DNA of 64,000 nucleotides, taken from positions 5,115-69,114 of the forward strand of contig JAQBYG010000001.1 in assembly GCA_027620445.1 (NCBI GenBank), read 5' to 3'. The notes under the pieces were generated by a model. The model saw only the letters and a program-made list of their open reading frames with translations. It was not told the DNA's origin and did no database searches. Source of the DNA: a bacterium (GTDB lineage: Bacteria > Patescibacteriota > Microgenomatia > UBA1400 > PJMF01). How positions within the stretch are numbered: position 1 is the first letter of the stretch; each line of letters opens with the position of its first letter. Below are positions 3,352-60,792 of the stretch, piece after piece. Both the position numbers and the translations under genes were made by a program.

Positions 3352-3930
3352 GTGATTCTCTCAAAGATAAATGTTAAAAAACTGTTAAAAAGAAGATTAC
3401 TACTAGCACTTGTAGTCATATCTCTCATTTTCTTTAGATACGATTTTGTGTTCTCTCTCTACTCTTATGCTGTTGCTCCTTATGACACTTTTTGGAGCAT
3501 CTTAAACACAAAAGTTTTTCACGACAACGCAGTGACTGGCTTGAGCCTGCAATATCTAGAAACTACCAATCCCAAATTTAATTTTGACAAAATCTTGAAA
3601 AACCAAAACGGTGAGGGCGGATACACAATTAGCATTTTTCTCAATAAGCTCAGAGTTGTCGCCCCAGATAAGAGCATTCTATTAGATAGCTCGCAACTCT
3701 TCCCATCATCATATTTAGTTTCTCACGCTTTGCAGGTGCTGGTGCACAATATTATCATTTTTTCTCTTGTATTTTTTCTCTACACAAGCATACGAGCAAA
3801 TAATTTCCGCCTAAATTTGGAGTATTTTAAAAGCACTTTTTCAATACCCATTATCATAGGACTCGGCATACCAATCACCCTCTTCCTGTTGTTTCTTATG
3901 CTTATACTAGTCACAAGGCCATTCATATAA
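3352..3930 (+). CDS. Hypothetical polytopic membrane protein
   Basis: 192 aa. Several hydrophobic helices and no recognisable domain. AT-rich relative to flanks. In the same frame as the next two ORFs (see findings). Confidence 0.4.
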   Translation: MILSKINVKKLLKRRLLLALVVISLIFFRYDFVFSLYSYAVAPYDTFWSILNTKVFHDNAVTGLSLQYLETTNPKFNFDKILKNQNGEGGYTISIFLNKLRVVAPDKSILLDSSQLFPSSYLVSHALQVLVHNIIIFSLVFFLYTSIRANNFRLNLEYFKSTFSIPIIIGLGIPITLFLLFLMLILVTRPFI

Positions 3931-4164
3931 ATGCCAAATATTCTTCCCCACTTAGTTCCTCGCAGGGTGACAGTTCCTCTATTTGAGCATCAGAATTCGG
4001 CAGTTGTCGGCTACATTCTCTTCTTGTTGTTACTGTCAAGCACGTACAAAGCATTAAAAACAAAGAACCGGGCTTGGAAACAAGCGTCTCTCTTTCTTTT
4101 CATAGCACTTGCCGGTTTAATTTTGACAAATTTGTGGATTGAAAACTTAATTCCTCTGAGATAG
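3931..4164 (+). CDS. Hypothetical small membrane protein
   Basis: 77 aa with two predicted TM helices. Its ATG directly abuts the TAA of the previous ORF (TAAATG). Confidence 0.3.
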   Translation: MPNILPHLVPRRVTVPLFEHQNSAVVGYILFLLLLSSTYKALKTKNRAWKQASLFLFIALAGLILTNLWIENLIPLR

Positions 4165-4176
4165 AAGCGTCGCTAT

Positions 4177-5709
4177 ATGCTTGCCAAACAGCTACAACTA
4201 ACCTTAGTAGCCCTCGCCCTCGTTTGCTACCTCCCCTTTTTGGGCAACAAACTGGTTTGGGATGACGAACAGTTTATCTATAGCAACGCGCATGTGCGCA
4301 ACTTTGCAGTTGGGAAAATCTTCACCACCAGCACAACTGATGGCGCTGGAATTATTAGTAACTACTACCGCCCATTTACGACCTTGAGCTTTGCAATTGA
4401 TCAGCAATTTTGGGGACTTAATCCAGTTGGTTACCACTTGCCAAATATGTTGCTCCATCTCGGATCAGGGCTATTGCTGTTCTACCTGCTGTACCTCATT
4501 GGACTTTCTCGGAACGTGAGTTTTTGGATCAGCGCCCTTTTTATCATTCATCCGATCCAAACAGAAGCAGTCGTGTATGCCAACTCGCGCGGAGATTCGC
4601 TCTACACATTTTTTGCCATCCTCGCGCTGACTAGTTTTTTGTATGCTTACAAACAGAAATCGTTGGCGCTGCGCTTTTATGAACAAAGGTTTGTGATCAA
4701 ACCACTCATCTTTGCAATCGCCACACCGCTGTTGTACCTCAGTAGTATTCTGAGCAAGGAAATCGGTATCGCCACACTTGGTTTATTTGGTCTTGTCTAC
4801 TTACAACAAATTTTAACAAATCAAAAGAAACATGCATTTCGAAAAATAGATATTGCAGTTCTGGTCGGAGTGGGAGTTATCGCGGGCGTGTATTTGTGGC
4901 TTCGTGGCAGTGTACTCAACTTTGATAATTCTTACAACTTCTACAGTAATGCCTCACTTTACGGTTCAAGTATTGTGGTGCGACTACTCACCTTTAGCAA
5001 GGTCATTTGGATTTATTTTCAGCTCCTCCTTGCACCATTCCCACTCCACATGGAACGGGATATCGAGCTCGTCACAACGCTGCGCTCAATCTTTCCTTGG
5101 GCAACACTTGCGCTCGTCACGGCTCTGAGCTGGCTTGGCTGGAGGGAGTATAAAAATTCGAGACAAGTATGGATTTGGCTTGGAGTTGGTTGGTTCTTTG
5201 GCATGCTTGCACCCGTTTCGGGTATTATTCCGATAAACGGCATACTGTATGAGCACTGGTTGTATGTACCAATGATCGGGTTTTTTATCTGTATTTTTGG
5301 GTTGTTAAAAAATAGTAAAAAGTACTTCAAAAGTAGTGAAAAATATGTACATATCATTTTATCTATCTTTGCAGCAATTTTGATTATTCTGACCCTGAGA
5401 CAAAACTATATTTGGGGCTCACCGATTCGGTTTTACTCTCACTTGCTTCAATACACGGAAAGCGCGCGGATTCATAATAATGTCGCCATGGCGTACGCCG
5501 ATGAACAGGAGCTTGAAAAAGCCTTAGAACACTACGAAAGGTCGCTTGAAATCGCACAGGTATATCCACAAACCTACTACAACATGGCAAATCTCTACAT
5601 CGCGATGGGGAAGTACGAAGAAGCAATTCCACTCTTGGAAAAGGCCCTAGAGCTTGCGCCAGAGTTTGGCTTGGCAGAACAAAAATTGAACGCGCTACAC
5701 TCTAGGTAA
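4177..5709 (+). CDS. Polytopic membrane protein with C-terminal TPR repeats (PMT_2/TMTC-like putative glycosyltransferase family)
   Basis: 510 aa. N-terminal TM helix followed by WDDEQFIYSNAHV motif typical of bacterial TMTC/PMT-like TPR proteins, about 10 TM helices, and a C-terminal TPR region (NVAMAYADEQELEKALEHYERSLEIAQVYPQTYYNMANLYIAMGKYEEAIPLLEKALEL). Confidence 0.6.
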   Translation: MLAKQLQLTLVALALVCYLPFLGNKLVWDDEQFIYSNAHVRNFAVGKIFTTSTTDGAGIISNYYRPFTTLSFAIDQQFWGLNPVGYHLPNMLLHLGSGLLLFYLLYLIGLSRNVSFWISALFIIHPIQTEAVVYANSRGDSLYTFFAILALTSFLYAYKQKSLALRFYEQRFVIKPLIFAIATPLLYLSSILSKEIGIATLGLFGLVYLQQILTNQKKHAFRKIDIAVLVGVGVIAGVYLWLRGSVLNFDNSYNFYSNASLYGSSIVVRLLTFSKVIWIYFQLLLAPFPLHMERDIELVTTLRSIFPWATLALVTALSWLGWREYKNSRQVWIWLGVGWFFGMLAPVSGIIPINGILYEHWLYVPMIGFFICIFGLLKNSKKYFKSSEKYVHIILSIFAAILIILTLRQNYIWGSPIRFYSHLLQYTESARIHNNVAMAYADEQELEKALEHYERSLEIAQVYPQTYYNMANLYIAMGKYEEAIPLLEKALELAPEFGLAEQKLNALHSR

Positions 5710-5732
5710 GGTTCTCGCTGTAAGCTCTCTGC

Positions 5733-6374
5733 ATGTTGCGACAATCACTCGTGCTCCTGAGAGAACTCCTCTGGCCACAAGCTTGCGCTGGCTGTGGTAC
5801 CTGGTTTTCTCCCCTCTGCCCCTATTGCTACAACAAACTGTCGTTTCATCTCTTACCCAAAACCTATGAGCTGAGTGACAAATCTACTTTGACTGTCTGG
5901 AGCATGCTGGAGTTCGACGAGCGCGTGCGAACGCTCATTCACCGCCTCAAGTATCAAGGTATGAGTGAGACAGCACCGCTACTGGCTGACCTGTTGTACT
6001 TTGCGAGCTACATCCCGCCCGCTGATATCATTGTTCCCATTCCCTTACACCGGAGCCGAAAGAAACTGCGCGGCTACAACCAATCAGAGCTCATCGCCAA
6101 ACGACTAGCACACCATCTGCAAATTCCTGTTCTTCCTGCAGTACTACGCCTTGTGGCATCTGCCCAACAGGTAAAAACTACTTCTCGCGAAGAACGACTT
6201 CACAACTTAGCAGGACACTTTGTTCTGGCTCCAGAGTATCAAGCAGCTTTGCTCGGCAAACGAATCTTGCTCATCGACGACGTCCTCACCACTGGCGCGA
6301 CCCTCACTGCCTGCGCAGAGGTGCTGCTGAGAGCAGAGCCAAAAGAGATTTTGGGGCTCACTGTTGCACATTGA
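5733..6374 (+). CDS. comFC: ComF-family phosphoribosyltransferase (ComFC-like)
   Basis: 213 aa. N-terminal double CxxC zinc ribbon (CAGCGTWFSPLCPYC) plus C-terminal PRTase PRPP-binding loop ILLIDDVLTTGATL. Confidence 0.75.
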   Translation: MLRQSLVLLRELLWPQACAGCGTWFSPLCPYCYNKLSFHLLPKTYELSDKSTLTVWSMLEFDERVRTLIHRLKYQGMSETAPLLADLLYFASYIPPADIIVPIPLHRSRKKLRGYNQSELIAKRLAHHLQIPVLPAVLRLVASAQQVKTTSREERLHNLAGHFVLAPEYQAALLGKRILLIDDVLTTGATLTACAEVLLRAEPKEILGLTVAH

Positions 6375-6403: not shown

Positions 6404-6817
6404 GGGGATGTATTGCTTTGACGTATGGCGCTCATTAACATCGGCAGGTCATCTTTGATAACAGATGTAAAACAGATCAAAACATAACTGCAAATTTCAT
6501 TCGCAGCACAGTTGCAAAGGTGAATCAAGTTGCTACGCAAGTAGCTTCCTACTTCTCCCCAGCTCCTTCAGCTTACGCTTTCGCGTAATCTGACATTTAG
6601 CATTTCACTCTCATGGGTGGTGAGTGCTAGGTGGGAACCCAGCCCGTGTGACTTGATGAATTGTTCGGTTTATTCATCACCAAGCTAATAACGACCGAGG
6701 TTGTCGCTGTATGGTTTGACCATTTCCCGCAGCGGCAATTAACCAAAGATGTTCTATACCTGTAGATGCTGTTAGTGTTCACGTACGGACGGGGGTTCAT
6801 TGCCCCCCATCTCCACA
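6404..6817 (+). ncRNA. ssrA: tmRNA (SsrA), standard one-piece form
   Basis: 5' GGGGATGTATTGCTTTGACG (compare E. coli GGGGCUGAUUCUGGAUUCGACG) and 3' GGACGGGGGTTCATTGCCCCCCATCTCCA-CA. T-arm GGGGG/TTCATTG/CCCCC. Acceptor stem 5' GGGGATG with 3' CATCTCC includes the G3:U70 wobble (alanine identity), then discriminator A. Internal tag reading frame ends ...SPAPSAYAFA-TAA (stop at 6586..6588). Lies in a 460-nt gap with no credible ORF. Confidence 0.85.
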
Positions 6818-9212: not shown

Positions 9213-11393
9213 TTACTCCTGTGTTTCTCCTGCCTCTACGCTGCGCAGGTGTTCCATTATAGCAGTTACATTGACTTCTCGTGGCTTACTTCCCTCTTGC
9301 GGACCAACCATACCAGCCGCATGGAGCTGATCAAGAATACGAGCTGCCCGGTTGTAACCAACAGAAAATCTGCGCTGAATCATCGAGGAAGAGCCCTTGC
9401 CTGCACTAGCAGCGTACTGCGCTGCTTCGGTAAAAAGCGGATCACGATCTTCCACTTCCGCCTCTGCACCACCAGTAATTGCGCCACCACCCTTGCCAGT
9501 CATGGTGTACTTGCTTGTTACGTCTTCTTCGTACTCTGGCTTCTGTCCCTGGGCCTTGATGAAATCAATCAGGGAGCGAATTTCGGCGTCGGAAACATAG
9601 GCACCCTGGACTCTCGACGGCTTCGCCTGATCCGGCGGAATGAATAACATGTCACCTCTGCCAAGCAATTTCTCGGCACCTGGTGTATCAAGTACAACAC
9701 GGGAATCTGTCATCGAGGAAACGTTAAAGGCGATGCGGGCAGGAATATTTGCCTTGATCAAACCTGTAATAACATCGACCGATGGTCGCTGCGTGGCGAG
9801 CACTAGGTGGATACCAACCGCACGAGCCATTTGGGCAATACGAGTGATACTCTCTTCTACTTCGGCTGGGGCAAACAACATAACGTCAGCCAACTCGTCG
9901 ATGATAATCACGATACTTGGCATAGCAGAGTGACCGGCCAACTCATTGTAGCCAGCAATATTTTTGACCCCAACTTCGGCGAGCTTCTTATATCTCTCTT
10001 CCATCTCATGCACTGCCCACTTGAGGGCAGACACCACCTTTTTGGGATCAACGATAACAGGCACAAGCAAATGGGGGATGTCGTTATAACCCGTCAACTC
10101 GACACGCTTTGGATCGACCAAAATAAAGCGAACTTCTGCTGGGCTTGCCCGAAACAGCATCGAACACATAAAAGCATTGATTGCGACTGATTTTCCTGAA
10201 CCCGTTGCGCCAGCGATCAAGACGTGTGGCATCTTGGCAATGTCCATGACGATCGGCTGCCCGGCGACGCTAATACCAAGCGAGGTAGCAAGCTTGGATG
10301 GATGTTTTTTCATCTGTGCAGATGCAAGCATTTTTCGCAGCGTCACGTACTGAGCAGAGTAGTTTGGCACTTCTACACCAACCAGTGAGCGACCAGCAAT
10401 TGGCGCCTCAATCCGAATCTGTCCAGTGGGGGCGGCCAGAGCCAGTGCTAAGTCGGTAGCCAGACCGGTAATTTTTGACAGCTTGGTACCACGAGTAATC
10501 TCCAACGCATACTGCGTGACTGAGGGACCGTAATTGACTTCGGAAACTTTTGCTTTGATACCAAATGATTCGAGCGTTGTCTCGATTGTTGCTGCATTTT
10601 TGCGTACATCGCCGCGATCTGCTTCGCCGCCCTCAGAATCATTGAGAAGCGAAAGTGGCGGATACTCCCAGATCATTTGTGCATTTGAGGGAGTAAAACC
10701 TACCGGTAGCTCGCCTTCCTTGCCTGGCACGGGTGGTTGTTTGGCAGCGTCAACAGCCGTATCACTCTTGCTCGTCGGGTCGTCTTCTAGTGATTTGCCT
10801 TGATTGATCTGAAATGGTGTTGCTCCAGATTTACCAAACGGCAAGTGCATTTTTGGCAATGACAGGCGACTCTTTGCTTCTGGCTCTTCGCTCAGAGCAG
10901 CAATATCTGCAGCTGCTTTCTTTTGGCGCAATGAGGCGATCCAATCCGCGAGCTCAGTAAAAGAGGTCTGGAAAAGCACGAGTAAACCTGCAATTAGAAT
11001 CGCCAAGAAAAGAAAGTAGCCGCCAACGGGAGTCAGGAGTGTTGCTATGTTGGTCGCTGTGGTAACCCCTACGCTACCGGTCTGAAAAAACCCGAGCACA
11101 CCAAAAAAACACAACGTAGCACCAAGAAATGAGTGTGGTCGCGCCCAAATCCAACGCCCGCGAAAGAACACCAATCCAGCTGAGAAGAACAAAAACGGCA
11201 GGATAAGCGCAGAGAGACCAAGCTTAGAGGAGACAAAAGCATTAATTGCCTGCAGCAACTTACCCTGTCCTGAGAAAGAAACTATAACCAAGATCCCACA
11301 GAGGAACAACGTAACTGCAGCTAATGAGTGCAGGGTCCCATCCTTCAAGTGAAGCGCGCCTTTTTTCTTACTTTTTCGCTTGTGCTTCTTCAT
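9213..11393 (-). CDS. ftsK: DNA translocase FtsK/SpoIIIE
   Basis: 726 aa. N-terminal TM helices, Walker A VLIAGATGSGKSVAINAFM, and a C-terminal gamma domain (SSMIQRRFSVGYNRAARILDQLHAAGMVGP). Confidence 0.9.
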   Translation of the reverse strand: MKKHKRKSKKKGALHLKDGTLHSLAAVTLFLCGILVIVSFSGQGKLLQAINAFVSSKLGLSALILPFLFFSAGLVFFRGRWIWARPHSFLGATLCFFGVLGFFQTGSVGVTTATNIATLLTPVGGYFLFLAILIAGLLVLFQTSFTELADWIASLRQKKAAADIAALSEEPEAKSRLSLPKMHLPFGKSGATPFQINQGKSLEDDPTSKSDTAVDAAKQPPVPGKEGELPVGFTPSNAQMIWEYPPLSLLNDSEGGEADRGDVRKNAATIETTLESFGIKAKVSEVNYGPSVTQYALEITRGTKLSKITGLATDLALALAAPTGQIRIEAPIAGRSLVGVEVPNYSAQYVTLRKMLASAQMKKHPSKLATSLGISVAGQPIVMDIAKMPHVLIAGATGSGKSVAINAFMCSMLFRASPAEVRFILVDPKRVELTGYNDIPHLLVPVIVDPKKVVSALKWAVHEMEERYKKLAEVGVKNIAGYNELAGHSAMPSIVIIIDELADVMLFAPAEVEESITRIAQMARAVGIHLVLATQRPSVDVITGLIKANIPARIAFNVSSMTDSRVVLDTPGAEKLLGRGDMLFIPPDQAKPSRVQGAYVSDAEIRSLIDFIKAQGQKPEYEEDVTSKYTMTGKGGGAITGGAEAEVEDRDPLFTEAAQYAASAGKGSSSMIQRRFSVGYNRAARILDQLHAAGMVGPQEGSKPREVNVTAIMEHLRSVEAGETQE

Positions 11394-23916: not shown

Positions 23917-25170
23917 CTATACGTTAAAAACTTGGCGAACTTTGGCCAGTCCTGCCACCAAAGCGTCAATATCAGCAGTTGTATTGTAGACGTTAAAACT
24001 CGCGCGCACGCTCGCCGTCCAGCCGAACTGCTCATGCAGCGGCATGGTGCAGTGATGGCCACTGCGAACAGCCACCCCAACGCTATCGAGTACCTGCGCT
24101 ACATCGTGGGCGTGCACTCCGTTGTAGGTAAAAGCGACCGAGCCAACTCGATCAACCTCGGTCTCACTAAAATCCTGTGGACCGATGATTGTAAGCTGTG
24201 GTACCGCCGAGAGTTTATCGAGCGCATACAGCACAAGATCTAGATCGTGCTGCCCAACGTCGCTCATGTGGAGCTTGGACAGGTACTCACAAGCAGCGGC
24301 CAAGCCAACGGCACTGGCCACATCCGGCGTCCCAGCGGTAAATCGCTCGCTTGCTTCGTCGGTGAAAGTGGTCCCTTTTGTCGTCACCGCCGCAATCATG
24401 CCACCACCAAATAACCACGGTCGTACTTCATTCGATTGCAAAAGAGCGCTGCGAACAAACACGCCCCCAATCCCCATCGGACCGAGCATTTTATGACCGC
24501 TGAACACAAGAAAGTCTGCGTCGAGCTTGGCAAATGAAACGGGGAGGTGTGGTGCAGACTGGGCAGCGTCAACGAGTACGCGAATGCCTGATTGAAGAGT
24601 GTGTGCCTCGGCAATAATCTCGGCAATCGGGTTGAGCGTCCCCAAGGTATTGGACACGTGTGAAAGTGCAAGAAGCTTCACTTTTGGCAAGGAAAGTTTG
24701 GCGCTCAAGGATGTACGATCGAGCCGACCGTCTTTGGTGAGCCCAATATACTCGACACTCGCACCAGTTCGTTTGGCTAACTCTTGCCAACACACAATGT
24801 TGGAGTGATGCTCCATGAGTGAAGTTAGAATGATATCGCCTGCTTGTAAATTGTGATCACCCCAGCCGTAGGCCACACCATTGATTGCCTCAGTCGTGTT
24901 GCGGGTGACGATCAGTTCGTCACTGTGCGCATCAAAAAACTTTGCGATGGTCGCACGACTTTCATCCCAAACTTGTGTACTCCTATCAGAGAGTTGATGC
25001 ACGCCGCGATGCACATTGGCATTGGTCGTTTGGTAGTACTGGGTAATGGCGTCAAGAACAACTTGGGGTTTTTGGCTTGTTGCTGCGCTGTCGAGGTAGA
25101 CGAGCTTGTCTCCCTGGGGGTTGTGGGTGAAAATGGGAAAGTCTTGGCGGATTGTGAGTGGGTTGAACAT
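23917..25170 (-). CDS. sufS: Cysteine desulfurase SufS
   Basis: 417 aa class-V aminotransferase: HHSNIVCWQ, PLP-lysine region FSGHKMLGPMGIGGVF, and active-site RSGHHC. Confidence 0.9.
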   Translation of the reverse strand: MFNPLTIRQDFPIFTHNPQGDKLVYLDSAATSQKPQVVLDAITQYYQTTNANVHRGVHQLSDRSTQVWDESRATIAKFFDAHSDELIVTRNTTEAINGVAYGWGDHNLQAGDIILTSLMEHHSNIVCWQELAKRTGASVEYIGLTKDGRLDRTSLSAKLSLPKVKLLALSHVSNTLGTLNPIAEIIAEAHTLQSGIRVLVDAAQSAPHLPVSFAKLDADFLVFSGHKMLGPMGIGGVFVRSALLQSNEVRPWLFGGGMIAAVTTKGTTFTDEASERFTAGTPDVASAVGLAAACEYLSKLHMSDVGQHDLDLVLYALDKLSAVPQLTIIGPQDFSETEVDRVGSVAFTYNGVHAHDVAQVLDSVGVAVRSGHHCTMPLHEQFGWTASVRASFNVYNTTADIDALVAGLAKVRQVFNV

Positions 25171-26453
25171 TAGATAGTTTTATCAAAATTTTCAACTATA
25201 GTGTTGAAATCAAAGAGATCAATCTTACAATCTCCCACTTGGTTATAGAAACAGTTTTCTGTATCGTACACGCCAGCAGCAATACTAACATCAAAAATGT
25301 CTACTTTATTATCTCTATTAAAGTCCCCCAACAATCTTGGGACTGGTGTGGGGGATGGTGTGGGAACAGGAGTTGGTACGGGGGTTGGTGTTGGCTGCGG
25401 ACACCGACTGATGGATGCTGTACGAAAAACGTCGTGCCACGGTCGTTTTCTGCCAGTAGAATCTATCAACCCCATTGCTGGATTACTAGAAAAATCACCC
25501 ATAGTGTGAAAAAAAGCAAGCGGCACGAACGAAAATTCAGGACTCGCAAGTCGCTCGATTGATTGAGATAAAAACTCCGCCCCTTGCGCCTCTGATATTG
25601 ATGTATCAGCACCCGGAATAACATTCCAACCATACTCTGTAATCCAGATAGGCTTTTGCGCCAGCTGATGCAGTCGCTTGACACTATCAAGATCAATGGC
25701 GCCGTGCCAATTGTAGGGATGTATAGAGAAAACATCGTAAGACCTGCCACCAGGACTGGAGTGCAGTCGCTCAACAAATGGTTCGTCCAAACGATCAAGC
25801 CCGCCAACGGAAACTATGATTGATTGGGAAACAGATTTCAGAGCCTTGTAGGTGATGTCTAGCCAATATGCATAGTCACGGACGGAATCATCTGAGTTGC
25901 CACAAAATCCCGTGCTCGAGCCGCAGCCGTTTTGCTCATTCCAGTACTCATATCGTGTCACCTGTGGGTACCTGCGAGCAGCAGTTTGCAAAAATCTCGT
26001 GTAATCTTGCTCAAACTCTCGTCTGGGCAATGCTTGGTGTGCTGGTAATGATCCCTCTTTTGCCCAATCGGGCGTGCCGACGACAAGTATCGTCACTGCC
26101 AAGCCATATTTTTCCGCCTCGGCAATGTCTGCATCTAGCTGTGCAAAATTGTATGCGCCTCTGCTTCTTTCAGAAATATCCCAATTTAGTGTCAATTTGG
26201 TTGCAGTGCCTCCAGCTTCATAAATAGCTTTGTACATGTTAGAAACATTTCCTCCTGGGTTGATGCCAAATAACAAAGGCCTAGTAAAGTTTGGACACGA
26301 AATACTTGCCGCAATAGCTTGGCTGCGAAAGGCTGTGTAACATACGATTAGAAAAGCTACTATCGCGACAACAGGGAAAAAGTGTTTACGTACAGCTTGA
26401 AAATGTAACATTAGTGATATTGTAGCAAGAAAGTTGCTATGCCTGGCCGCCAT
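25170..26453 (-). CDS. Secreted clan GH-A glycoside-hydrolase-like protein (GH5/GH39-like) with Pro-Thr linker and dockerin-like C-terminus
   Basis: Signal peptide. Candidate catalytic acid/base in YEYWNEQN and nucleophile in IWITEYGW, in the right order for a (beta/alpha)8 clan GH-A enzyme. Then CPQPTPTPVPTPVPTPSPTPVP linker and two Ca-binding-like segments GDFNRDNKVDIFD / GDCKIDLFDFN. 1-nt stop/start overlap with sufS. Confidence 0.55.
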   Translation of the reverse strand: MAARHSNFLATISLMLHFQAVRKHFFPVVAIVAFLIVCYTAFRSQAIAASISCPNFTRPLLFGINPGGNVSNMYKAIYEAGGTATKLTLNWDISERSRGAYNFAQLDADIAEAEKYGLAVTILVVGTPDWAKEGSLPAHQALPRREFEQDYTRFLQTAARRYPQVTRYEYWNEQNGCGSSTGFCGNSDDSVRDYAYWLDITYKALKSVSQSIIVSVGGLDRLDEPFVERLHSSPGGRSYDVFSIHPYNWHGAIDLDSVKRLHQLAQKPIWITEYGWNVIPGADTSISEAQGAEFLSQSIERLASPEFSFVPLAFFHTMGDFSSNPAMGLIDSTGRKRPWHDVFRTASISRCPQPTPTPVPTPVPTPSPTPVPRLLGDFNRDNKVDIFDVSIAAGVYDTENCFYNQVGDCKIDLFDFNTIVENFDKTI

Positions 26454-26507
26454 AAGTATTTACCACTTCTCTATCGGTATGGTTTAAGATTACTGCAAAT
26501 ATGTGTT

Positions 26508-27003
26508 TTAGATATCGATATAAAAAATTTGTGTGATACCGTAACCATCTACCCATAAATTGGGTATCTTGAAACCGACATACTTCACAGCTACTTCTGC
26601 TTTTAACTCTCTTAATTTTTGAGCAAAACTGCAACATGCAACACACTTGACTGTAAAGCCTCTAGCGCCAGCAGGAGTGCGGCAAGTGTTGTTCTCGAAT
26701 CTATCATATCCTCAATTACAAGCACATACTTTCCCGCTAATTCCTGTTCGTCGAAATGAAAATGAATAATTGGCTTACCTGTCGACTCCATTCCCTGATA
26801 ACTACTAATCTTGACTGATTCCCAGCGAATGCTGATTCCTAATTTTTTCAGCTCAACAACAAGTTGCTCAGCAAAAACTTGGGCGCTTTCGAGCACACAA
26901 AGTACGACTAGTTCAGCATCGCTTTCACCTACGGTTTACTCTCGAAAATCGGTCGCAATTTCAGTTGCGAAACTTCTAACACGAGCGAGAATTTAGTGCT
27001 CAT
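26508..27003 (-). pseudogene. hpt: Hypoxanthine-guanine phosphoribosyltransferase gene carrying two frameshifts
   Basis: Three frames together give a colinear HPRT: MSTKFSLVLEVSQLKLRPIFESKP | GESDAELVVLCVLESAQVFAEQLVVELKKLGISIRWESVKISSYQGMESTGKPIIHFHFDEQELAGKYVLVIEDMIDSRTTLAALLLALEALQSSVLHVAVLLKN | LRELKAEVAVKYVGFKIPNLWVDGYGITQIFYIDI. The second shift is at a T5/A5 run (26616..26620); the first is near 26925..26930. Confidence 0.6.
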
Positions 27004-27424
27004 ATAACAAAATTTCTTGAACCAAAGTAACCAACTCTATCGAGGAATATGGCGCATGAAAATACTCTTCGTTTACCAAAACTACCTGAACTGACTCAGA
27101 TCCGTCCCTAGTAAAAAGCACTGGTTGTCCTGCTACAGTACTAATAGGCACCCGCTCATGAGTTTGTCTTGGGGCAGCTAGACTCAACTTTGCCTGCTCA
27201 ACAGAGCAATTTTGCCAACTCACCCAAGTTTGAGGTGGCAACGTGATTGTTCCCGAAACGGATCGTGGTTCGAGCTCACCTGGGAGGATAATACTAAATG
27301 AGCCGAACTTTCCGACTGACTTGAGCAAGCAAAGAACTGCACAATCAGCATGTGAGAGTACTTCTGGAGCTGCTCCGCAGCCATAACCAATAGGCCTTTC
27401 ACTGTTTGGTATCATGGTAGGCAA
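26993..27424 (-). CDS. Hypothetical protein
   Basis: 143 aa, no recognised motif. Sits where tilS is found in many tilS-hpt-ftsH operons but lacks the PP-loop. Possibly a remnant. Confidence 0.3.
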   Translation of the reverse strand: MPTMIPNSERPIGYGCGAAPEVLSHADCAVLCLLKSVGKFGSFSIILPGELEPRSVSGTITLPPQTWVSWQNCSVEQAKLSLAAPRQTHERVPISTVAGQPVLFTRDGSESVQVVLVNEEYFHAPYSSIELVTLVQEILLYEH

Positions 27425-27463
27425 CTATAATAAACCCTGTCAACAGTGATACTATGAGTACGC

Positions 27464-27943
27464 ATGCAAAAAATCACCAAACTCCTCGCCTCAATCGTCG
27501 GTTGTGAACTTGTCGGGATTATCGGTGGCGTGAGCACAACCTTGTCGATCAGCACTTGGTATGTCACGCTCGAAAAACCGTTCTTTTCTCCGCCGAACTG
27601 GCTCTTTGGTCCCGTCTGGACAACTTTGTATCTTTTGATGGGAGTTTCATTTTTTCTGTTGTGGCAGCAAGGCTGGAAGAAAAAACAAGTTCGGACTGCT
27701 CGCAACTACTTCTTGGCACAACTCGGGCTCAACTTTATCTGGACTCCGGTATTCTTCGGCCTGAGATCCCCCGCGCTGGCACTGGTGATAATTCTTGGCT
27801 TACTTGTCCTTATCGTGCTGACGATCAAACACACATATAAAGTGTCGCGCTGGGCTGCATACTTGCTGGTACCCTACTTGCTCTGGGTGAGTTTTGCGAC
27901 GGCGCTCAATGCGGCGATAGTGGGGTTGAATTATGCGAAATAA
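27464..27943 (+). CDS. tspO: TspO/MBR family tryptophan-rich sensory protein
   Basis: WYVTLEKPFFSPPNWLFGPVWTTLYLLMG...LAQLGLNFIWTPVFFG...AAYLLVPYLLWVSFATALNAAIVGLN. Five TM helices with all TspO signature residues. Confidence 0.85.
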   Translation: MQKITKLLASIVGCELVGIIGGVSTTLSISTWYVTLEKPFFSPPNWLFGPVWTTLYLLMGVSFFLLWQQGWKKKQVRTARNYFLAQLGLNFIWTPVFFGLRSPALALVIILGLLVLIVLTIKHTYKVSRWAAYLLVPYLLWVSFATALNAAIVGLNYAK

Positions 27944-28463
27944 ATCCATCAAAAAAATTGCCATTTACCAAACTAAGAGCGGTGCGATTGTATTTCGTGA
28001 CGATTCGAAGCGAGAAACAATTTGGGGGGATTTGAATCAAATTGCAGATTTGTTTGGTCGTGATAAATCGGTTATTTCTCGTCACATCAATAATATTTAT
28101 AAATCAAGAGAACTTGAAGAGGCAGCAACTGTTGCAAAAATTGCAACAGTTCAAAAAGAAGGTGGTAGAGAGGTAACTCGTGAGATTGAACATTTTAACC
28201 TTGATATGATTTTATCTGTCGGATACAGGGTAGATTCTAAACAAGCAACGCAATTTCGCATCTGGGCAACCAAAACCCTCAAGCAGCACATTGTCCAGGG
28301 CTACACTATCAACAAAAAACGCGTTGGCGAGAATTACGAAAAATTCATGCAAGCGGTGGCGGATGTGAAAGCCTTGACTCTCCTTTTGGCAGAAAGTAAT
28401 CCGAAAGATAAAGATAAAATGATTGGGCTAACCTTGTTACTTCTGAATGGGGGAAGACAATAG
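27933..28463 (+). CDS. RhuM-family protein, N-terminal domain (ends at in-frame TAG)
   Basis: IAIYQTKSGAIVFRDDSKRETIWGDLNQIADLFGRDKSVISRHINNIYKSRELEEAATVAKIATVQKEGGREVTREIEHFNLDMILSVGYRVDSKQATQFRIWATKTLKQHIVQGYTINKKR matches the Virulence_RhuM N-domain. Overlaps the tspO stop by 11 nt. Confidence 0.75.
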   Translation: MRNKSIKKIAIYQTKSGAIVFRDDSKRETIWGDLNQIADLFGRDKSVISRHINNIYKSRELEEAATVAKIATVQKEGGREVTREIEHFNLDMILSVGYRVDSKQATQFRIWATKTLKQHIVQGYTINKKRVGENYEKFMQAVADVKALTLLLAESNPKDKDKMIGLTLLLLNGGRQ

Positions 28464-29069
28464 ATGCATGAAGTTAATTTGCGGCGGGAACATGATAGTG
28501 ATGACTTTGACTCAACCGCCAAAACTCTTTTTGCCCTCTCTGACATAAAATGGGAACTCCTCAATTTTGTAAAAAATAATCCGGGATGTGATATCGCGAC
28601 TATTGTAGAGCAGATCGGGGCGCCAACACCCGCAGTCATCCAAAAACACTTGAAAAGATTGGAGGTGTATGGGTTTATTGCATCACAAACAGGCCACGCC
28701 GTTAAACAAACTGGCGAGAAAAGACTGCTCTACTCACTTGCCCCAAGACATATTGCAGCTGCTATGGATAGTACACGGCAAATAGAAGAAGAACTAACAA
28801 TCAAACTTGATCCTCAGCTGGTGGTACGAATCCAGCAGCTCGGAAATGAACGAAAAATACGCAATCAAATCATTTGCATTTGTACTATGCTTCAAGATAA
28901 AGCACTTACACAAAGGGAGATTTTACTCGGACTGAGAGATTACTTTACACTAAAAAACTTACCCACCAATCATGCAGAGGTGTTACGACAACTTGTCGAA
29001 GCGGAGATTTTGAGGCGGACTATCAGTGAGAGGAAGCTAGGATACATCTATCAGCTGCCCAAATCCTGA
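28464..29069 (+). CDS. Winged-helix DNA-binding protein; likely the C-terminal continuation of the RhuM-family gene
   Basis: Starts with ATG immediately after the TAG, in the same frame. ArsR/MarR-like wHTH (CDIATIVEQIGAPTPAVIQKHLKRLEVYGFIA). Combined length 377 aa is similar to full-length RhuM-family proteins. Confidence 0.45.
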   Translation: MHEVNLRREHDSDDFDSTAKTLFALSDIKWELLNFVKNNPGCDIATIVEQIGAPTPAVIQKHLKRLEVYGFIASQTGHAVKQTGEKRLLYSLAPRHIAAAMDSTRQIEEELTIKLDPQLVVRIQQLGNERKIRNQIICICTMLQDKALTQREILLGLRDYFTLKNLPTNHAEVLRQLVEAEILRRTISERKLGYIYQLPKS

Positions 29070-29137
29070 TAAAGCATTATCATTGATCACGCTTTTCACC
29101 ATGAAAAAACTGTATTTGTTAAAATGATCATACAAAT

Positions 29138-30271
29138 ATGTCAAAGAGTAGTGAACAAATTCTGGCAGAAGCAAGACCCTCTAGAAAGAGACGAAAAGCA
29201 GAACGAATTCCAAGAAGAGCATTTTCAAAAGGACTCGCTTTGTTTTTACTAGGAACAGGTGCAGTTGTAGCATCGGGAGGCGTATTTCTTTGGAACAGAG
29301 AAAAAGACAAGGTGCCCAGTGTCGAAGCATCAATTTCCTTCATAAAAAATGAAGTTGAGAATCAAAAAAACTTGCCTTCACTGAGGGAGTACGGCGAGAG
29401 AAAAACAAAGATTTTTATTTTCCATGCCTATAATATTTTCTCTCAAGTGACTGGAAGTGCTCAATCGGCTAGAGCCATCATCGACAATACCTCACTAGTT
29501 GAGGCTGCGTATATTACTGCCCTGCATCAACAAGATATGTCGGGAGTTAACCTCAGTGAGCACCCAACTGCATCTGACCCCAGGGATACTAACGGAAAAG
29601 TTTATACAGCTGATAAAAAATCGGGCAAACTTGGTGTGGCTGTTAATCTAGATGCGCACTTGTTTCACTTAGATCAAATCCGAACGCGAACATATGATCA
29701 TTTTCAGGTGCAACAAACTGTACTGGGAAATTTGCTTGACACCGTTCTGCATGAGCCACATCACTACGAAATACCACGACAAACACTGACTACACCAATC
29801 GAGTATTCATTTCAAACTGCAGTTGGCACTACACACATTTCATACGAAGAAATCTGGGGTCTATCCATAAGTGGGACACTCGAAACACCGCCATATACTA
29901 CAATGTTGTCAGCAAACTTTGATGAAGCAAGCATTTATCTGATCCACAGAGACTTGCTACAACCAGCAGTCCAATCAAATTTTCCAACATATAGCTACTC
30001 GCCTCCAATGCGGGAGAATGCTTTGTTGTACATTCAACAAGTATTCCAGGCCATAGGAATCAACTCGCCACAAGCAATTCTAGAACTCAGAAGAGCACCC
30101 AGTGGAGGTCGTACCCTCATAGAAAAATTGGGAGCAAAACTGCCAGCAGGCACTTTTGGAGTCGAAAACGCTACAGAAAGAGGTATTGTTTTCTTGGGAA
30201 AATCAGAGGCTGCAGTAGATGGCAATGATCAAAAGAAAATGGATGAGTTGCTTGGGTTGTTGATAAATTAG
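29138..30271 (+). CDS. Hypothetical membrane-anchored protein with HExxH-like motif
   Basis: 377 aa. Basic N-terminus plus one TM helix (GLALFLLGTGAVVASGGVFLW), extracytoplasmic domain containing VLHEPHHYE (H-E-x-x-H). No other recognisable domain. Confidence 0.4.
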   Translation: MSKSSEQILAEARPSRKRRKAERIPRRAFSKGLALFLLGTGAVVASGGVFLWNREKDKVPSVEASISFIKNEVENQKNLPSLREYGERKTKIFIFHAYNIFSQVTGSAQSARAIIDNTSLVEAAYITALHQQDMSGVNLSEHPTASDPRDTNGKVYTADKKSGKLGVAVNLDAHLFHLDQIRTRTYDHFQVQQTVLGNLLDTVLHEPHHYEIPRQTLTTPIEYSFQTAVGTTHISYEEIWGLSISGTLETPPYTTMLSANFDEASIYLIHRDLLQPAVQSNFPTYSYSPPMRENALLYIQQVFQAIGINSPQAILELRRAPSGGRTLIEKLGAKLPAGTFGVENATERGIVFLGKSEAAVDGNDQKKMDELLGLLIN

Positions 30272-30365
30272 GAGCAAAGGTGAAAACTGCTCGGCTTACC
30301 CAAGTATTGAGGAAAAAGCCGCGCAACTTGAAATGTTAAGTAATTCTTAACAGCTGGAAAATAGC

Positions 30366-30393
30366 TTGACGACTTAAAAAATAAGCCTATAAT
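30366..30393 (+). promoter_or_regulatory. Near-consensus sigma70-type promoter (TTGACG-16 nt-TATAAT)
   Basis: TTGACG at 30366..30371 and TATAAT at 30388..30393 with a 16-nt spacer. No protein-coding gene follows on this strand. Confidence 0.5.
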
Positions 30394-30399
30394 AGCGAA

Positions 30400-30545
30400 T
30401 CAGCAAGTCCGGGTTTGGAGGAGAAGGTGGAATCCCTCCTTAAACAATCGTATCCAGACTCCAAGTTGGAAGAGGGTGGGTTTTCAGCCTCCTCTGAAAA
30501 AGTCCGATCAAAGCGGTACTCCAGCTGCTTGTTGTATTTTTTTTG
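30400..30545 (+). ncRNA. Candidate small RNA of about 145 nt, class unknown
   Basis: Begins about 7 nt after the -10 box. 5' CAGCAAG pairs with 3' CUUGUUG directly followed by a U8 run (intrinsic-terminator-like closing stem). Internal hairpins GGAGG...CCUCC and AGAGG...CCUCU. No ORF. Confidence 0.4.
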
Positions 30546-30546
30546 A

Positions 30547-30756
30547 TCAGAGAAGCGAGCTACTCGTTTTTCTTACTCTGTCTTTGACCTCAGAGTGAGT
30601 AAGCATTTTCAACATTTGATAATCGTGTCTACCGAGATAATAAACGAACTGTCCAATGCTTTCATTAAAAAATGCAGCTTCGATGGTAAATGTCATTCCT
30701 TCATAACGAACAAGATCGCCTTGCTTAAATAATGGCTCATCTTTTGGTTTTGACAT
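30547..30756 (-). CDS. Small hypothetical protein
   Basis: 69 aa, downstream of the short sufD in the same orientation. No motif. Confidence 0.3.
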   Translation of the reverse strand: MSKPKDEPLFKQGDLVRYEGMTFTIEAAFFNESIGQFVYYLGRHDYQMLKMLTHSEVKDRVRKTSSSLL

Positions 30757-30823
30757 AGTTAGATTATTCTAGTTTTTGAACTGTTTCCAAAATGAAAATA
30801 ACCACTTCGTGCCAAAGCTTCCC

Positions 30824-31312
30824 TCATTCTACCCCCAAAAAACCCTCCACAATCAGCCCCTCCGCCTTATTGCGACTCACCCCGCGACTCATGAGATAAA
30901 ACAGTTGTTCCTCGGGAATTGAGCTGATGCTCGCCGCGTGAGAGCACTTGACGTCGTCAGTCAAAATCTCGAGCTCTGGCACTGCCTCTGCCTTTGCTTC
31001 TGGTGAAAGTAACAGGATGCGCTCGGTCAGGAATGAGTTGGTGTCGGGACACTCGGGATCAATTTTTATCTTGCCCCAAAATGAGATAAACCCTGTATCA
31101 GCCACAGCCCCGTGCAGCTTGGTGGTCGCTCGGGTGTGCGGGGCTTGGTGGTGGATAGTGACGGCAATTTTGATGCGCTCGGTACCGGTGGCATGGAAGC
31201 TACCAGTGAGTGTCAACTCCACACTTGGCTTGGTCAAGAAATACTCGTACTCGCCCGGGGTTGAGATCGTAATATTTTGTGACTCGCTGATGGTGGTTTG
31301 GATTGCCGACAT
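30824..31312 (-). CDS. sufD: Minimal SufD-like Fe-S assembly protein (SufBD C-terminal beta-helix only)
   Basis: 162 aa. C-terminal ...[29 protein letters not shown] parallels the SufB C-terminus ([26 protein letters not shown]). 1-nt overlap with the sufB stop. Confidence 0.6.
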   Translation of the reverse strand: MSAIQTTISESQNITISTPGEYEYFLTKPSVELTLTGSFHATGTERIKIAVTIHHQAPHTRATTKLHGAVADTGFISFWGKIKIDPECPDTNSFLTERILLLSPEAKAEAVPELEILTDDVKCSHAASISSIPEEQLFYLMSRGVSRNKAEGLIVEGFLGVE

Positions 31313-39150: not shown

Positions 39151-39996
39151 TTAGGCCGGGCTATTATTAGTTTCTTCTCTAATCCGCTCCAACTCAATCA
39201 CCCGATCCCGCGCCGTCGTCGCAAAAAACTCTGCCACCCGTTCGGGTGATCGCTGCTCGTGCGGCACCTCTGCTGGTAGTAGTTGTGAACCAATCACGTA
39301 ACCTCTCGCGCCACTTTCAAACGACGCGCGCACTTGCTCTTTGAACTCCTCATACGCCACCCCACGGCCCGAAACTACCCACGGCACATCAAGACTCGCA
39401 GTTAGCGTGACAGCAGAGAGTGGATCGATCGGATACTCGAGGAAAAAGAGATCGCAGTACTCTTGCAGCTCCGCAATGGCGTCGAGCTGCAGCTCTAAAA
39501 ACTGCGCCTTATACTTTTCTTTGGCTGTTTCTAGGTACAACACGAGGTCAATGATGAACGCGATACCTTCGTGCCGACAGTAATCTGCCAACTCTACCAC
39601 CATCTGTTTTTTTGACCGCGCATCTTCTTCTTGTGGATTGTAATAGAGCTCGAGCTTGGCAACACCATAGTTATTGCGCGTTTGCTCGACACCCCAAGTC
39701 TGGGCCAGCACCGGTACAGTCAAAGGATCTTTGGCCCGGACCATATCAGAAAGTTCAAAAATAACACCTGCGTTCTTGGGCAAATCAGCCACGGCCGAAA
39801 AACCAACATCGGGAGCAAGACAGACGCCACTGGCGTGGGGAGCTAATACCCTACTTGCCTCGGCAATAAGATCAACAACTTGGGCTGCCTCTTCTGGATT
39901 TTTCAACGATAAACCAGCATGATCTGCCACTGCTAAAGGATCAGCCAAAGTAATCAGCGAAAAACCTGCGTCCGCGCGGATGGCATCGAGTGTCAT
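39151..39996 (-). CDS. Class I aldolase of the LacD / tagatose-1,6-bisphosphate aldolase family
   Basis: [41 protein letters not shown] parallels LacD [53 protein letters not shown] parallels SILLDPEYGL. Confidence 0.55.
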   Translation of the reverse strand: [281 protein letters not shown]

Positions 39997-59850: not shown

Positions 59851-60792
59851 TTAAAAGAGCGCTTTCTGAATCGAAAGTTCAAACGTGTCTTTTGGCAACA
59901 AGCCGTGCAGTGATTTGAAATTAAATTTTTCGAACAATGTACTCGCTGCTTCTTTGTTGTACTCAGAAACCGCGCATGGCTCCAAGGCAAAATCGATCGG
60001 AACTGCTCGATCGATCGTGGCCAGTTTTTGACTTAAGAACGCCATTTCTCGATCTTGCGCAATTTTTTTGAAAACTGAACCAACCAAGACTTCATCGGCG
60101 CTCGGCGCATCGCCGGCTAGCAACTCATCGACTCGTTTGTAAATCCCTGCAAGTGAGTGGTATCTCTCGAGTAATTGGCGAGCAGTCTTGGGACCGACCC
60201 CTTTCACCCCAGGAATATTATCCGACGAATCTCCCATGAGCGCCTTGAGATCAATTATTTGCGAAACCGGCACGCCCATTTTTTTGAGCACCTCGTCTTC
60301 GTCGTACTCAGTATCGAGAGAGCCGCGACCTCTTCCTGGCAACCAAGCGTGGGTCTTCTCACTCACCAGCTGAAATATATCTTTATCACCTGTAACAATG
60401 ATTGAGCGAACGTCGGGGTGCTGCTGCTCTACTTGTTGTGTGATTGTGCCAAGCAAGTCGTCGGCCTCAATACCATCCTGAGAAAACTGCGGGATGTTGA
60501 GCGCACTGACCACATCTTTGACTAAAGCTATTTGTGGAATAAGGTCATCGGGCATAGCCATTCTGTGCGCCTTGTACTCGGTGTAGGCTTCTGCGCGCTT
60601 GGTCTTTCCTTTGCTGTCAAAAGTGGCTGCAATATAGGTCGGTTTGAGATCTCGGATTGCAACCAACACGCTGCGGCTAAAACCATACACCGCATTCACC
60701 AGTGTCCCGTCTGGAGCAGTCAAGTTGGGAAACGCGTGGTAGGCACGATAAATGAGCGCGTGACTATCAATGAGAACAAAGGTTTTCGACAC
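59851..60792 (-). CDS. Stand-alone 5'-3' exonuclease (FEN / Pol I 5'-nuclease-domain-like)
   Basis: MSKTFVLIDSHALIYRAYHAF..., acidic metal-binding clusters, and helix-hairpin-helix (GIPGVKGVGPKTARQLL). 313 aa. Confidence 0.85.
   Translation of the reverse strand: MSKTFVLIDSHALIYRAYHAFPNLTAPDGTLVNAVYGFSRSVLVAIRDLKPTYIAATFDSKGKTKRAEAYTEYKAHRMAMPDDLIPQIALVKDVVSALNIPQFSQDGIEADDLLGTITQQVEQQHPDVRSIIVTGDKDIFQLVSEKTHAWLPGRGRGSLDTEYDEDEVLKKMGVPVSQIIDLKALMGDSSDNIPGVKGVGPKTARQLLERYHSLAGIYKRVDELLAGDAPSADEVLVGSVFKKIAQDREMAFLSQKLATIDRAVPIDFALEPCAVSEYNKEAASTLFEKFNFKSLHGLLPKDTFELSIQKALF

Follow-up and report, generated by a model that had tools for sequence, protein, structure and literature searches.

A short, independently transcribed unit of about 140-146 nt, probably non-coding and specific to its lineage, may lie in the 3' UTR of a horizontally acquired island operon in the window (the whole stretch of DNA analyzed here, 64,000 nt in length); we hold this reading tentatively, and the parts of which it is made differ in strength. 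The orphan promoter at the upstream end of the unit (Table 1) is likely to fire. That a discrete non-coding RNA results is slightly less than an even bet, and that such an RNA has a selected function is rather unlikely. The original prediction was of a candidate novel sRNA; what survives of it is a plausible non-coding unit, equipped with a promoter and a stop signal, that shows no conservation and only weak structure.

Several findings speak for a non-coding unit: an excess of near-consensus promoter matches in the window over the number expected by chance, the length of the spacer in which the unit lies, the non-coding score of the reading frame inside it, the helix that closes its two ends, and its position in an inserted island. 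Against it stand its occurrence as a singleton, a fold near that of shuffled sequences, a weak terminator hairpin, and the lack of a comparable unit at the same junction in the nearest relative (contig L082). A further point against it is that at least one chance promoter match at 11 or more of 12 positions is to be expected per window about half the time.

If the preferred reading is true, the unit would add to the few candidate regulatory RNAs of CPR bacteria, about whose control of transcription and of later steps very little is known, and it would be an sRNA brought by a mobile island to a site beside the core Fe-S assembly operon. We found no characterized sRNA from CPR/Patescibacteria in the literature. 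At best the unit would represent a new lineage-specific sRNA, island-borne or embedded in a 3' UTR, of a kind already known; a confirmed case would be of some value to CPR biology.

Table 1. Predicted features at the convergent junction, in window positions.
Feature	Positions	Strand	Remarks
377-aa island gene	29138..30271	+	N-terminal TM helix and HEPHH (HExxH-type) motif; 3' UTR holds the candidate
Sigma-70-type promoter	30366..30393	+	TTGACG (-35, 30366-71), 16-nt spacer, TATAAT (-10, 30388-93); 11/12 match
Predicted transcript, ~140-146 nt	30400..30545	+	placed from promoter and U-tract positions
Closing helix, 5' arm CAGCAAGU	30401..30408	+	pairs with 30527-30534
Hairpin 1	30417..30439	+	GGAGG 30417-21 / CCUCC 30435-39; encloses GTG 30427; 5' arm is the SD-like GGAGGAG
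Small ORF, 39 codons (GTG 30427) or 43 codons (TTG 30415)	30427..30546	+	stop codon TGA inside U-tract
Hairpin 2	30471..30495	+	AGAGG(G) 30471-75 / (U)CCUCU 30491-95; present in MFE structure
Terminator-like element	30511..~30545	+	7-bp hairpin 30511-30530, GUUGUA, U8 30537-30544; from consensus scan
Closing helix, 3' arm GCUUGUUG	30527..30534	+	overlaps 3' arm of local terminator hairpin; followed by UA and U8
69-aa gene, last after sufBD, convergent	30547..30756	-	stop codon abuts U-tract

The inserted island and its neighbors

The window belongs to the genome of an uncultured member of the Patescibacteria (CPR), of the Microgenomates type. Its G+C content is 47%, and its SufB is 69-78% identical to proteins from MAGs of Patescibacteria, Woesebacteria, Pacebacteria and Chisholmbacteria. 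The sequence of the window is present also in the ENA assembly ERZ23495043 (contig L001) and in an 80-kb NCBI MAG contig. The candidate is a singleton, seen only in two identical contigs that represent one metagenome-assembled population.

The nearest relative, L082, is a 28.5-kb contig whose suf operon is ~80% identical to that of the window and which is collinear with the window on both sides of the junction. At the junction itself, L082 has a 67-aa gene, then a 298-nt spacer, then a phosphoribosyltransferase gene. The window has, in the interval from the 69-aa gene to a truncated transferase, a 143-aa ORF, tspO, a truncated rhuM, a 201-aa winged-helix (wHTH) ORF, the 377-aa gene and the candidate. 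This synteny identifies the tspO/rhuM island as inserted DNA by comparison with L082, and its G+C content is 40-43%, as against 52-56% for the suf operon. The same comparison agrees with the placement first proposed for the candidate, at the right edge of the inserted island and convergent with the suf operon. Four of the island genes (tspO, rhuM, the 201-aa gene and the 377-aa gene) are closely packed on the plus strand. No attachment-site repeats were found around the island, and the window contains no second copy of the candidate and no other repeats.

Some of the neighboring genes merit separate description. The rhuM-like gene (27933-28463, plus strand) corresponds to only the N-terminal ~145 residues of PDC-S05/PDC-S23 (E 1e-59), which are PADLOC candidate defense models, and the 201-aa winged-helix ORF (28464-29069, plus strand) follows it with zero gap; together they may represent a split or rearranged RhuM-type defense candidate. 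The 201-aa protein has one relative; its gene is on a 2-kb contig that is arranged differently, with a full-length 334-aa RhuM as neighbor and the candidate region absent. For the 377-aa protein, possibly an orphan membrane-anchored metalloprotease-like protein, searches of 5.8 billion clustered proteins and of JGI metagenomes turned up no homologs, a result to be read with the fact that the first search returned not even the protein's own sequence. For the 69-aa protein the sole homolog cluster is P0002, 62% identical, in L082. Matches to an apparently "long SufB" in relatives were considered as an intein or intron and rejected; tblastn had joined SufB to an adjacent SufD paralog.

At the far side of the island, the adjoining phosphoribosyltransferase ORF (26612-26896, minus strand) encodes 94 aa, as against 164 aa in L082, and is probably a truncated gene or pseudogene that arose at or after insertion of the island. 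The leftmost ORF of the island, with 143 aa (26993-27424, minus strand), has a non-coding-like codon score of -1.1 per 39 codons and no family match, and is perhaps not a genuine gene, although its start is overlapped by a TTGACA-18-TACCAT site. L082 carries genes for a MazG-like protein and a Schlafen-group-3-type helicase (positions 3790-5985 of that contig), inserted between sufD and the 67-aa gene. Since this is a different insertion at the same junction, the sufD/69-aa/transferase junction seems to be a hotspot for accessory, defense-like genes in this lineage.

Promoter and stop signal in the convergent spacer

The promoter is placed 95 nt past the stop codon of the 377-aa gene. It is predicted from sequence to belong to the sigma-70 type, a class in which a hexamer like TTGACA and one like TATAAT are separated by 16-18 nt. 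The exact pattern TTGACN-N15-18-TATAAT occurs here and nowhere else in the window, where 0.15 occurrences are expected and 15% of shuffled versions contain one. Sites that match the consensus in at least 11 of 12 positions number three, while first-order Markov simulations give an expectation of 0.7 (P(>=3)=0.03). The site had been described as the best sigma70-like promoter in the window; it is indeed near-consensus, with 11 of 12 positions, and shares that rank with two other 11/12 sites, both on the minus strand, which lie 33 nt (57320-57292) and 12 nt (11433-11406) upstream of gene starts. The tmRNA gene is preceded by TTGCAC-16-TATAAT, a site of the same architecture. From such sites it clearly appears that this genome uses sigma-70-consensus promoters, which makes a near-consensus site within a 275-nt non-coding spacer likelier to be real than spurious.

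The use of sigma-70-consensus promoters, along with many apparently leaderless mRNAs, is the more general by-product of the analysis. Many genes of the window lack an SD and carry, just 6-12 nt ahead of the start codon, a TAnnnT box resembling a -10 element; examples are found at 2007 (+), 59851-60792 (-), 9213-11393 (-), 39151-39996 (-), 27464 (+) and 57346 (+). This arrangement suggests that leaderless mRNAs are widespread in this Patescibacteria genome. Strong SDs of the GGAGG type are rare in the window, and most genes are without one. No start codon lies at leaderless distance from the orphan promoter.

Only slightly less likely than the preferred reading is that the spacer encodes no functional RNA at all, and that a fortuitous or spurious promoter, which may or may not fire, happens to lie in an AT-richer acquired spacer whose hairpin and U8 tract end the island operon and shield suf. 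Horizontally acquired AT-rich DNA carries many spurious promoters, and the low G+C content of the island fits this description, as does the expectation of ~0.7 chance matches at 11 of 12 positions or better per window. Chance matches, however, should land mostly in the ~90% of the window that is coding rather than in a spacer of 275 nt, and the excess of near-consensus sites over expectation suggests that most of them are real.

The stop signal bears on both readings. From 25076 to 31044, the plus strand has no terminator-like site other than this hairpin and U8 tract. Two hairpins without U-runs lie between the stop codon of the 377-aa gene and the -35 box, and no plus-strand terminator was found between that stop codon and the T8 run. 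The U8 signal would also terminate the island operon tspO-rhuM-201aa-377aa, since no other plus-strand terminator follows that operon. A terminator is needed for the island operon regardless of whether the internal promoter functions, as the reading with no functional RNA would have it, so only the promoter is truly an orphan. In the preferred reading, transcription would start near 30400, 6-9 nt past the -10 box, and would stop within the U8 tract; the island operon mRNA and the short RNA would share this stop, and the short RNA would be identical to the last 145 nt of the operon 3' UTR.

The local terminator stem has 7 bp, of which three are G-C pairs and two are G-U pairs; it has a predicted energy of -8.4 kcal/mol (z -1.55) and ends 6 nt before the U-tract. 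An alternative long-range helix of 8 bp ends 2 nt ahead of the U-tract. T-runs of at least seven in this genome are mostly found within genes, and classical intrinsic terminators therefore may not be the rule here.

An arrangement of this sort is familiar from sRNAs embedded in 3' UTRs. DapZ and MicL, both type I 3'-UTR sRNAs, are each transcribed from a promoter of their own and end at a terminator shared with the upstream mRNA. The candidate is like them in having a promoter after the upstream stop codon, no terminator between the two, and one hairpin with U-tract to serve both transcripts, a likeness of sequence geometry only. It is unlike sRNAs of the DapZ/MicL type in that the candidate promoter is situated in the UTR and not within a coding sequence, and in having no homologs to show selection.

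The spacer between the convergent genes, at 275 nt, is unusually long; other convergent genes in this compact genome abut or overlap. No terminator-like site was found on the minus strand after the 69-aa gene, and transcription of the suf/69-aa operon probably continues into the spacer. The candidate RNA would be perfectly complementary to any such read-through, since no minus-strand terminator intervenes. If it is functional, it would most likely act as a cis-antisense RNA or by transcriptional interference where the two operons converge, and not as a housekeeping RNA. Here the candidate resembles the cis-antisense RNAs known from convergent junctions (excludon-like arrangements; RatA and SR4), being convergent with the 69-aa/suf operon and complementary to its read-through. 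It differs from RatA and SR4 in that the overlap depends on hypothetical read-through, the partner is not a hydrophobic toxin, and L082 has no such unit.

Folding and coding capacity of the predicted transcript

The pairings on which the original prediction was built (GGAGG with CCUCC, AGAGG with CCUCU, and the 5' end with the 3' end) are all where it had put them, as is the U8 tract at ~145 nt. Its description of the transcript as "structured" is weakly supported by the folding models: the 8-bp closing helix goes beyond what shuffled sequences offer, while the overall fold stays near the shuffles and the single hairpins are no better than shuffles. The MFE of the predicted transcript is -44.9 kcal/mol, as compared with -38.3 +/- 4.0 kcal/mol for shuffles (z -1.67, or -1.84 without the U-tail). 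The MFE structure is multibranched and accounts for ~1% of the ensemble, and the fold of the opposite strand is nearly as good (z -1.52). Folded alone, hairpin 1 reaches -9.1 kcal/mol (z -0.47) and hairpin 2 reaches -12.7 kcal/mol (z -0.08). Hairpins that do no better than shuffles are in keeping with a spacer that encodes no functional RNA. The end-to-end helix of 8 bp is not; it is found in just 0.9% of shuffles of the predicted transcript (P=0.009) and would be unexpected on that reading. It is the one element retained in centroid structures, and the ends that it joins are defined independently, by the promoter and by the U-tract.

A fuller proposal for function can be built on these elements. 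It would make the candidate an island-borne regulatory sRNA of ~145 nt, with paired ends, two SD/anti-SD-like hairpins (GGAGG/CCUCC) and its own promoter within the 3' UTR of a defense-like island operon, acting either in cis as an antisense RNA on suf read-through or in trans on ribosome-binding sites. We consider this version unlikely.

It had been claimed that no plus-strand ORF follows the promoter. This is not strictly true; a small ORF of 39 or 43 codons, with an SD-like site, had been overlooked. The locus could then be a small-protein gene with a leader of 17-26 nt, a GGAGGAG site and a start at GTG 30427 or TTG 30415, in which hairpin 1 would sequester both the SD and the start codon. 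The GGAGGAG lies 5 nt before GTG 30427, the ORF fills the interval from promoter to terminator almost exactly, and gene callers routinely miss ORFs of this size (none was called in L001). The codon log-odds score, however, is -3.85. Only the lowest 1.4% of real 39-codon segments score so poorly, and non-coding frames free of stops typically do; the score was trained on 57 genes of the window and is not decisive, as island genes also score below core genes. The ORF has no match in Pfam, NCBIfam, PHROG or PADLOC. When 1.84 billion representative proteins were searched exhaustively with HMMER, a single match came up, to a repeat protein, which is spurious because its score is the sum over seven chance matches of 21 residues. 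The peptide is hydrophilic, with no TM or signal-like segment (the highest 19-aa Kyte-Doolittle window of the 43-aa ORF is -0.27). An SD-dependent start would also be out of keeping with most genes here, which have no strong SD and of which many look leaderless. With non-coding-like codons, no homologs and no family membership, the small ORF is rejected as a conserved protein, and a small-protein gene of any kind at this site is improbable. The broader point of the original prediction, that no protein gene convincingly uses the promoter, holds.

The convergent arrangement and the small ORF together invite comparison with type I toxin-antitoxin systems, such as the Bacillus txpA/RatA pair, in which the toxin mRNA and the antitoxin RNA (RatA) overlap at the 3' end of the mRNA. 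Here the toxin would be encoded by the 69-aa gene or by the 43-codon ORF. The predicted RNA does end right against the stop codon of the convergent 69-aa gene, with no minus-strand terminator between them, and the pairing of the 5' and 3' ends with a sequestered SD recalls toxin mRNAs of the hok and aapA types. What the locus lacks is a hydrophobic helix; the highest 19-aa Kyte-Doolittle window of the 69-aa protein is 0.70, and that of the 43-aa ORF is the negative value given above. Moreover, the homolog of the 69-aa gene in L082 has no convergent RNA unit. Neither peptide being hydrophobic, we reject the toxin-antitoxin reading as highly improbable.

Searches for known RNAs and for relatives

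A scan of the whole window with Rfam 15 at the gathering score finds only tmRNA and one tRNA. Relaxing the threshold to E<=10 for positions 30200-30800, on both strands, adds nothing credible, only one chance match to a lncRNA. These results agree with the original prediction in finding no identity with SRP RNA or a riboswitch; RNase P likewise gives no match at E<=10. They go against its suggestion that the transcript could be 6S RNA, for which there is no match at the gathering score or at E<=10 over the same interval. The candidate is like 6S RNA (RF00013) in being small, in having a strong promoter and in having paired 5' and 3' ends. It is unlike 6S RNA in giving no covariance match, in its length of ~145 nt as against ~180 nt (160-200 nt for the class), in its marginally stable, multibranched fold (z -1.7) where 6S RNA has a rod with a central bubble, and in its location in accessory DNA.

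The same evidence weighs on the wider notion that the transcript is a divergent housekeeping RNA (6S, SRP/4.5S, RNase P, Y RNA) or a known riboswitch or leader. The pairing of its ends is a trait of several stable RNAs, and its promoter resembles that of the tmRNA gene. No Rfam family other than tmRNA and tRNA is found, however, the fold is not the rod of 6S RNA and is of modest stability (z ~-1.7), and the locus belongs to an accessory stretch that the closest relative lacks; a riboswitch, for its part, would have no downstream plus-strand gene to control. We regard this reading as close to refuted.

No relative of the candidate was found. Searches by nhmmer and blastn against 80 SufB loci return only the identical contig L001, and there is no homolog in 15 Microgenomates loci. 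A single-sequence covariance model (R1) finds nothing in 22 related loci. The orthologous spacer in L082 gives no significant alignment with 30272-30546 (P=0.1-0.2), and it contains no promoter/terminator unit and no Rfam match. An exact 23-mer of hairpin 1 is absent from viral contigs, and blastn against phages and plasmids finds nothing. Two apparent leads were rejected. A marginal match in locus L004 (E=0.09) falls inside a 544-aa ORF that is homologous neither to the 377-aa gene nor to the candidate, and is attributed to chance; a purine/pyrimidine-degenerate pattern made from hairpin 1 finds, in JGI metagenomes, two copies of an unrelated coding sequence.

The original prediction had proposed that a lack of conservation and covariation in relatives would count against it, and none was found anywhere. 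The result is uninformative rather than refuting, because L082, the only close relative, is without the whole island. It is also what a spacer with no functional RNA would give.

The tmRNA gene of this genome (6404-6818, plus strand), found by Rfam at 92.8 bits, is missed by ARAGORN; compared with the model, its tag region contains 57 nt of inserted sequence. Should GCA at 6490 be its resume codon, the tag would be unusually long, with 32 aa: ANFIRSTVAKVNQVATQVASYFSPAPSAYAFA.
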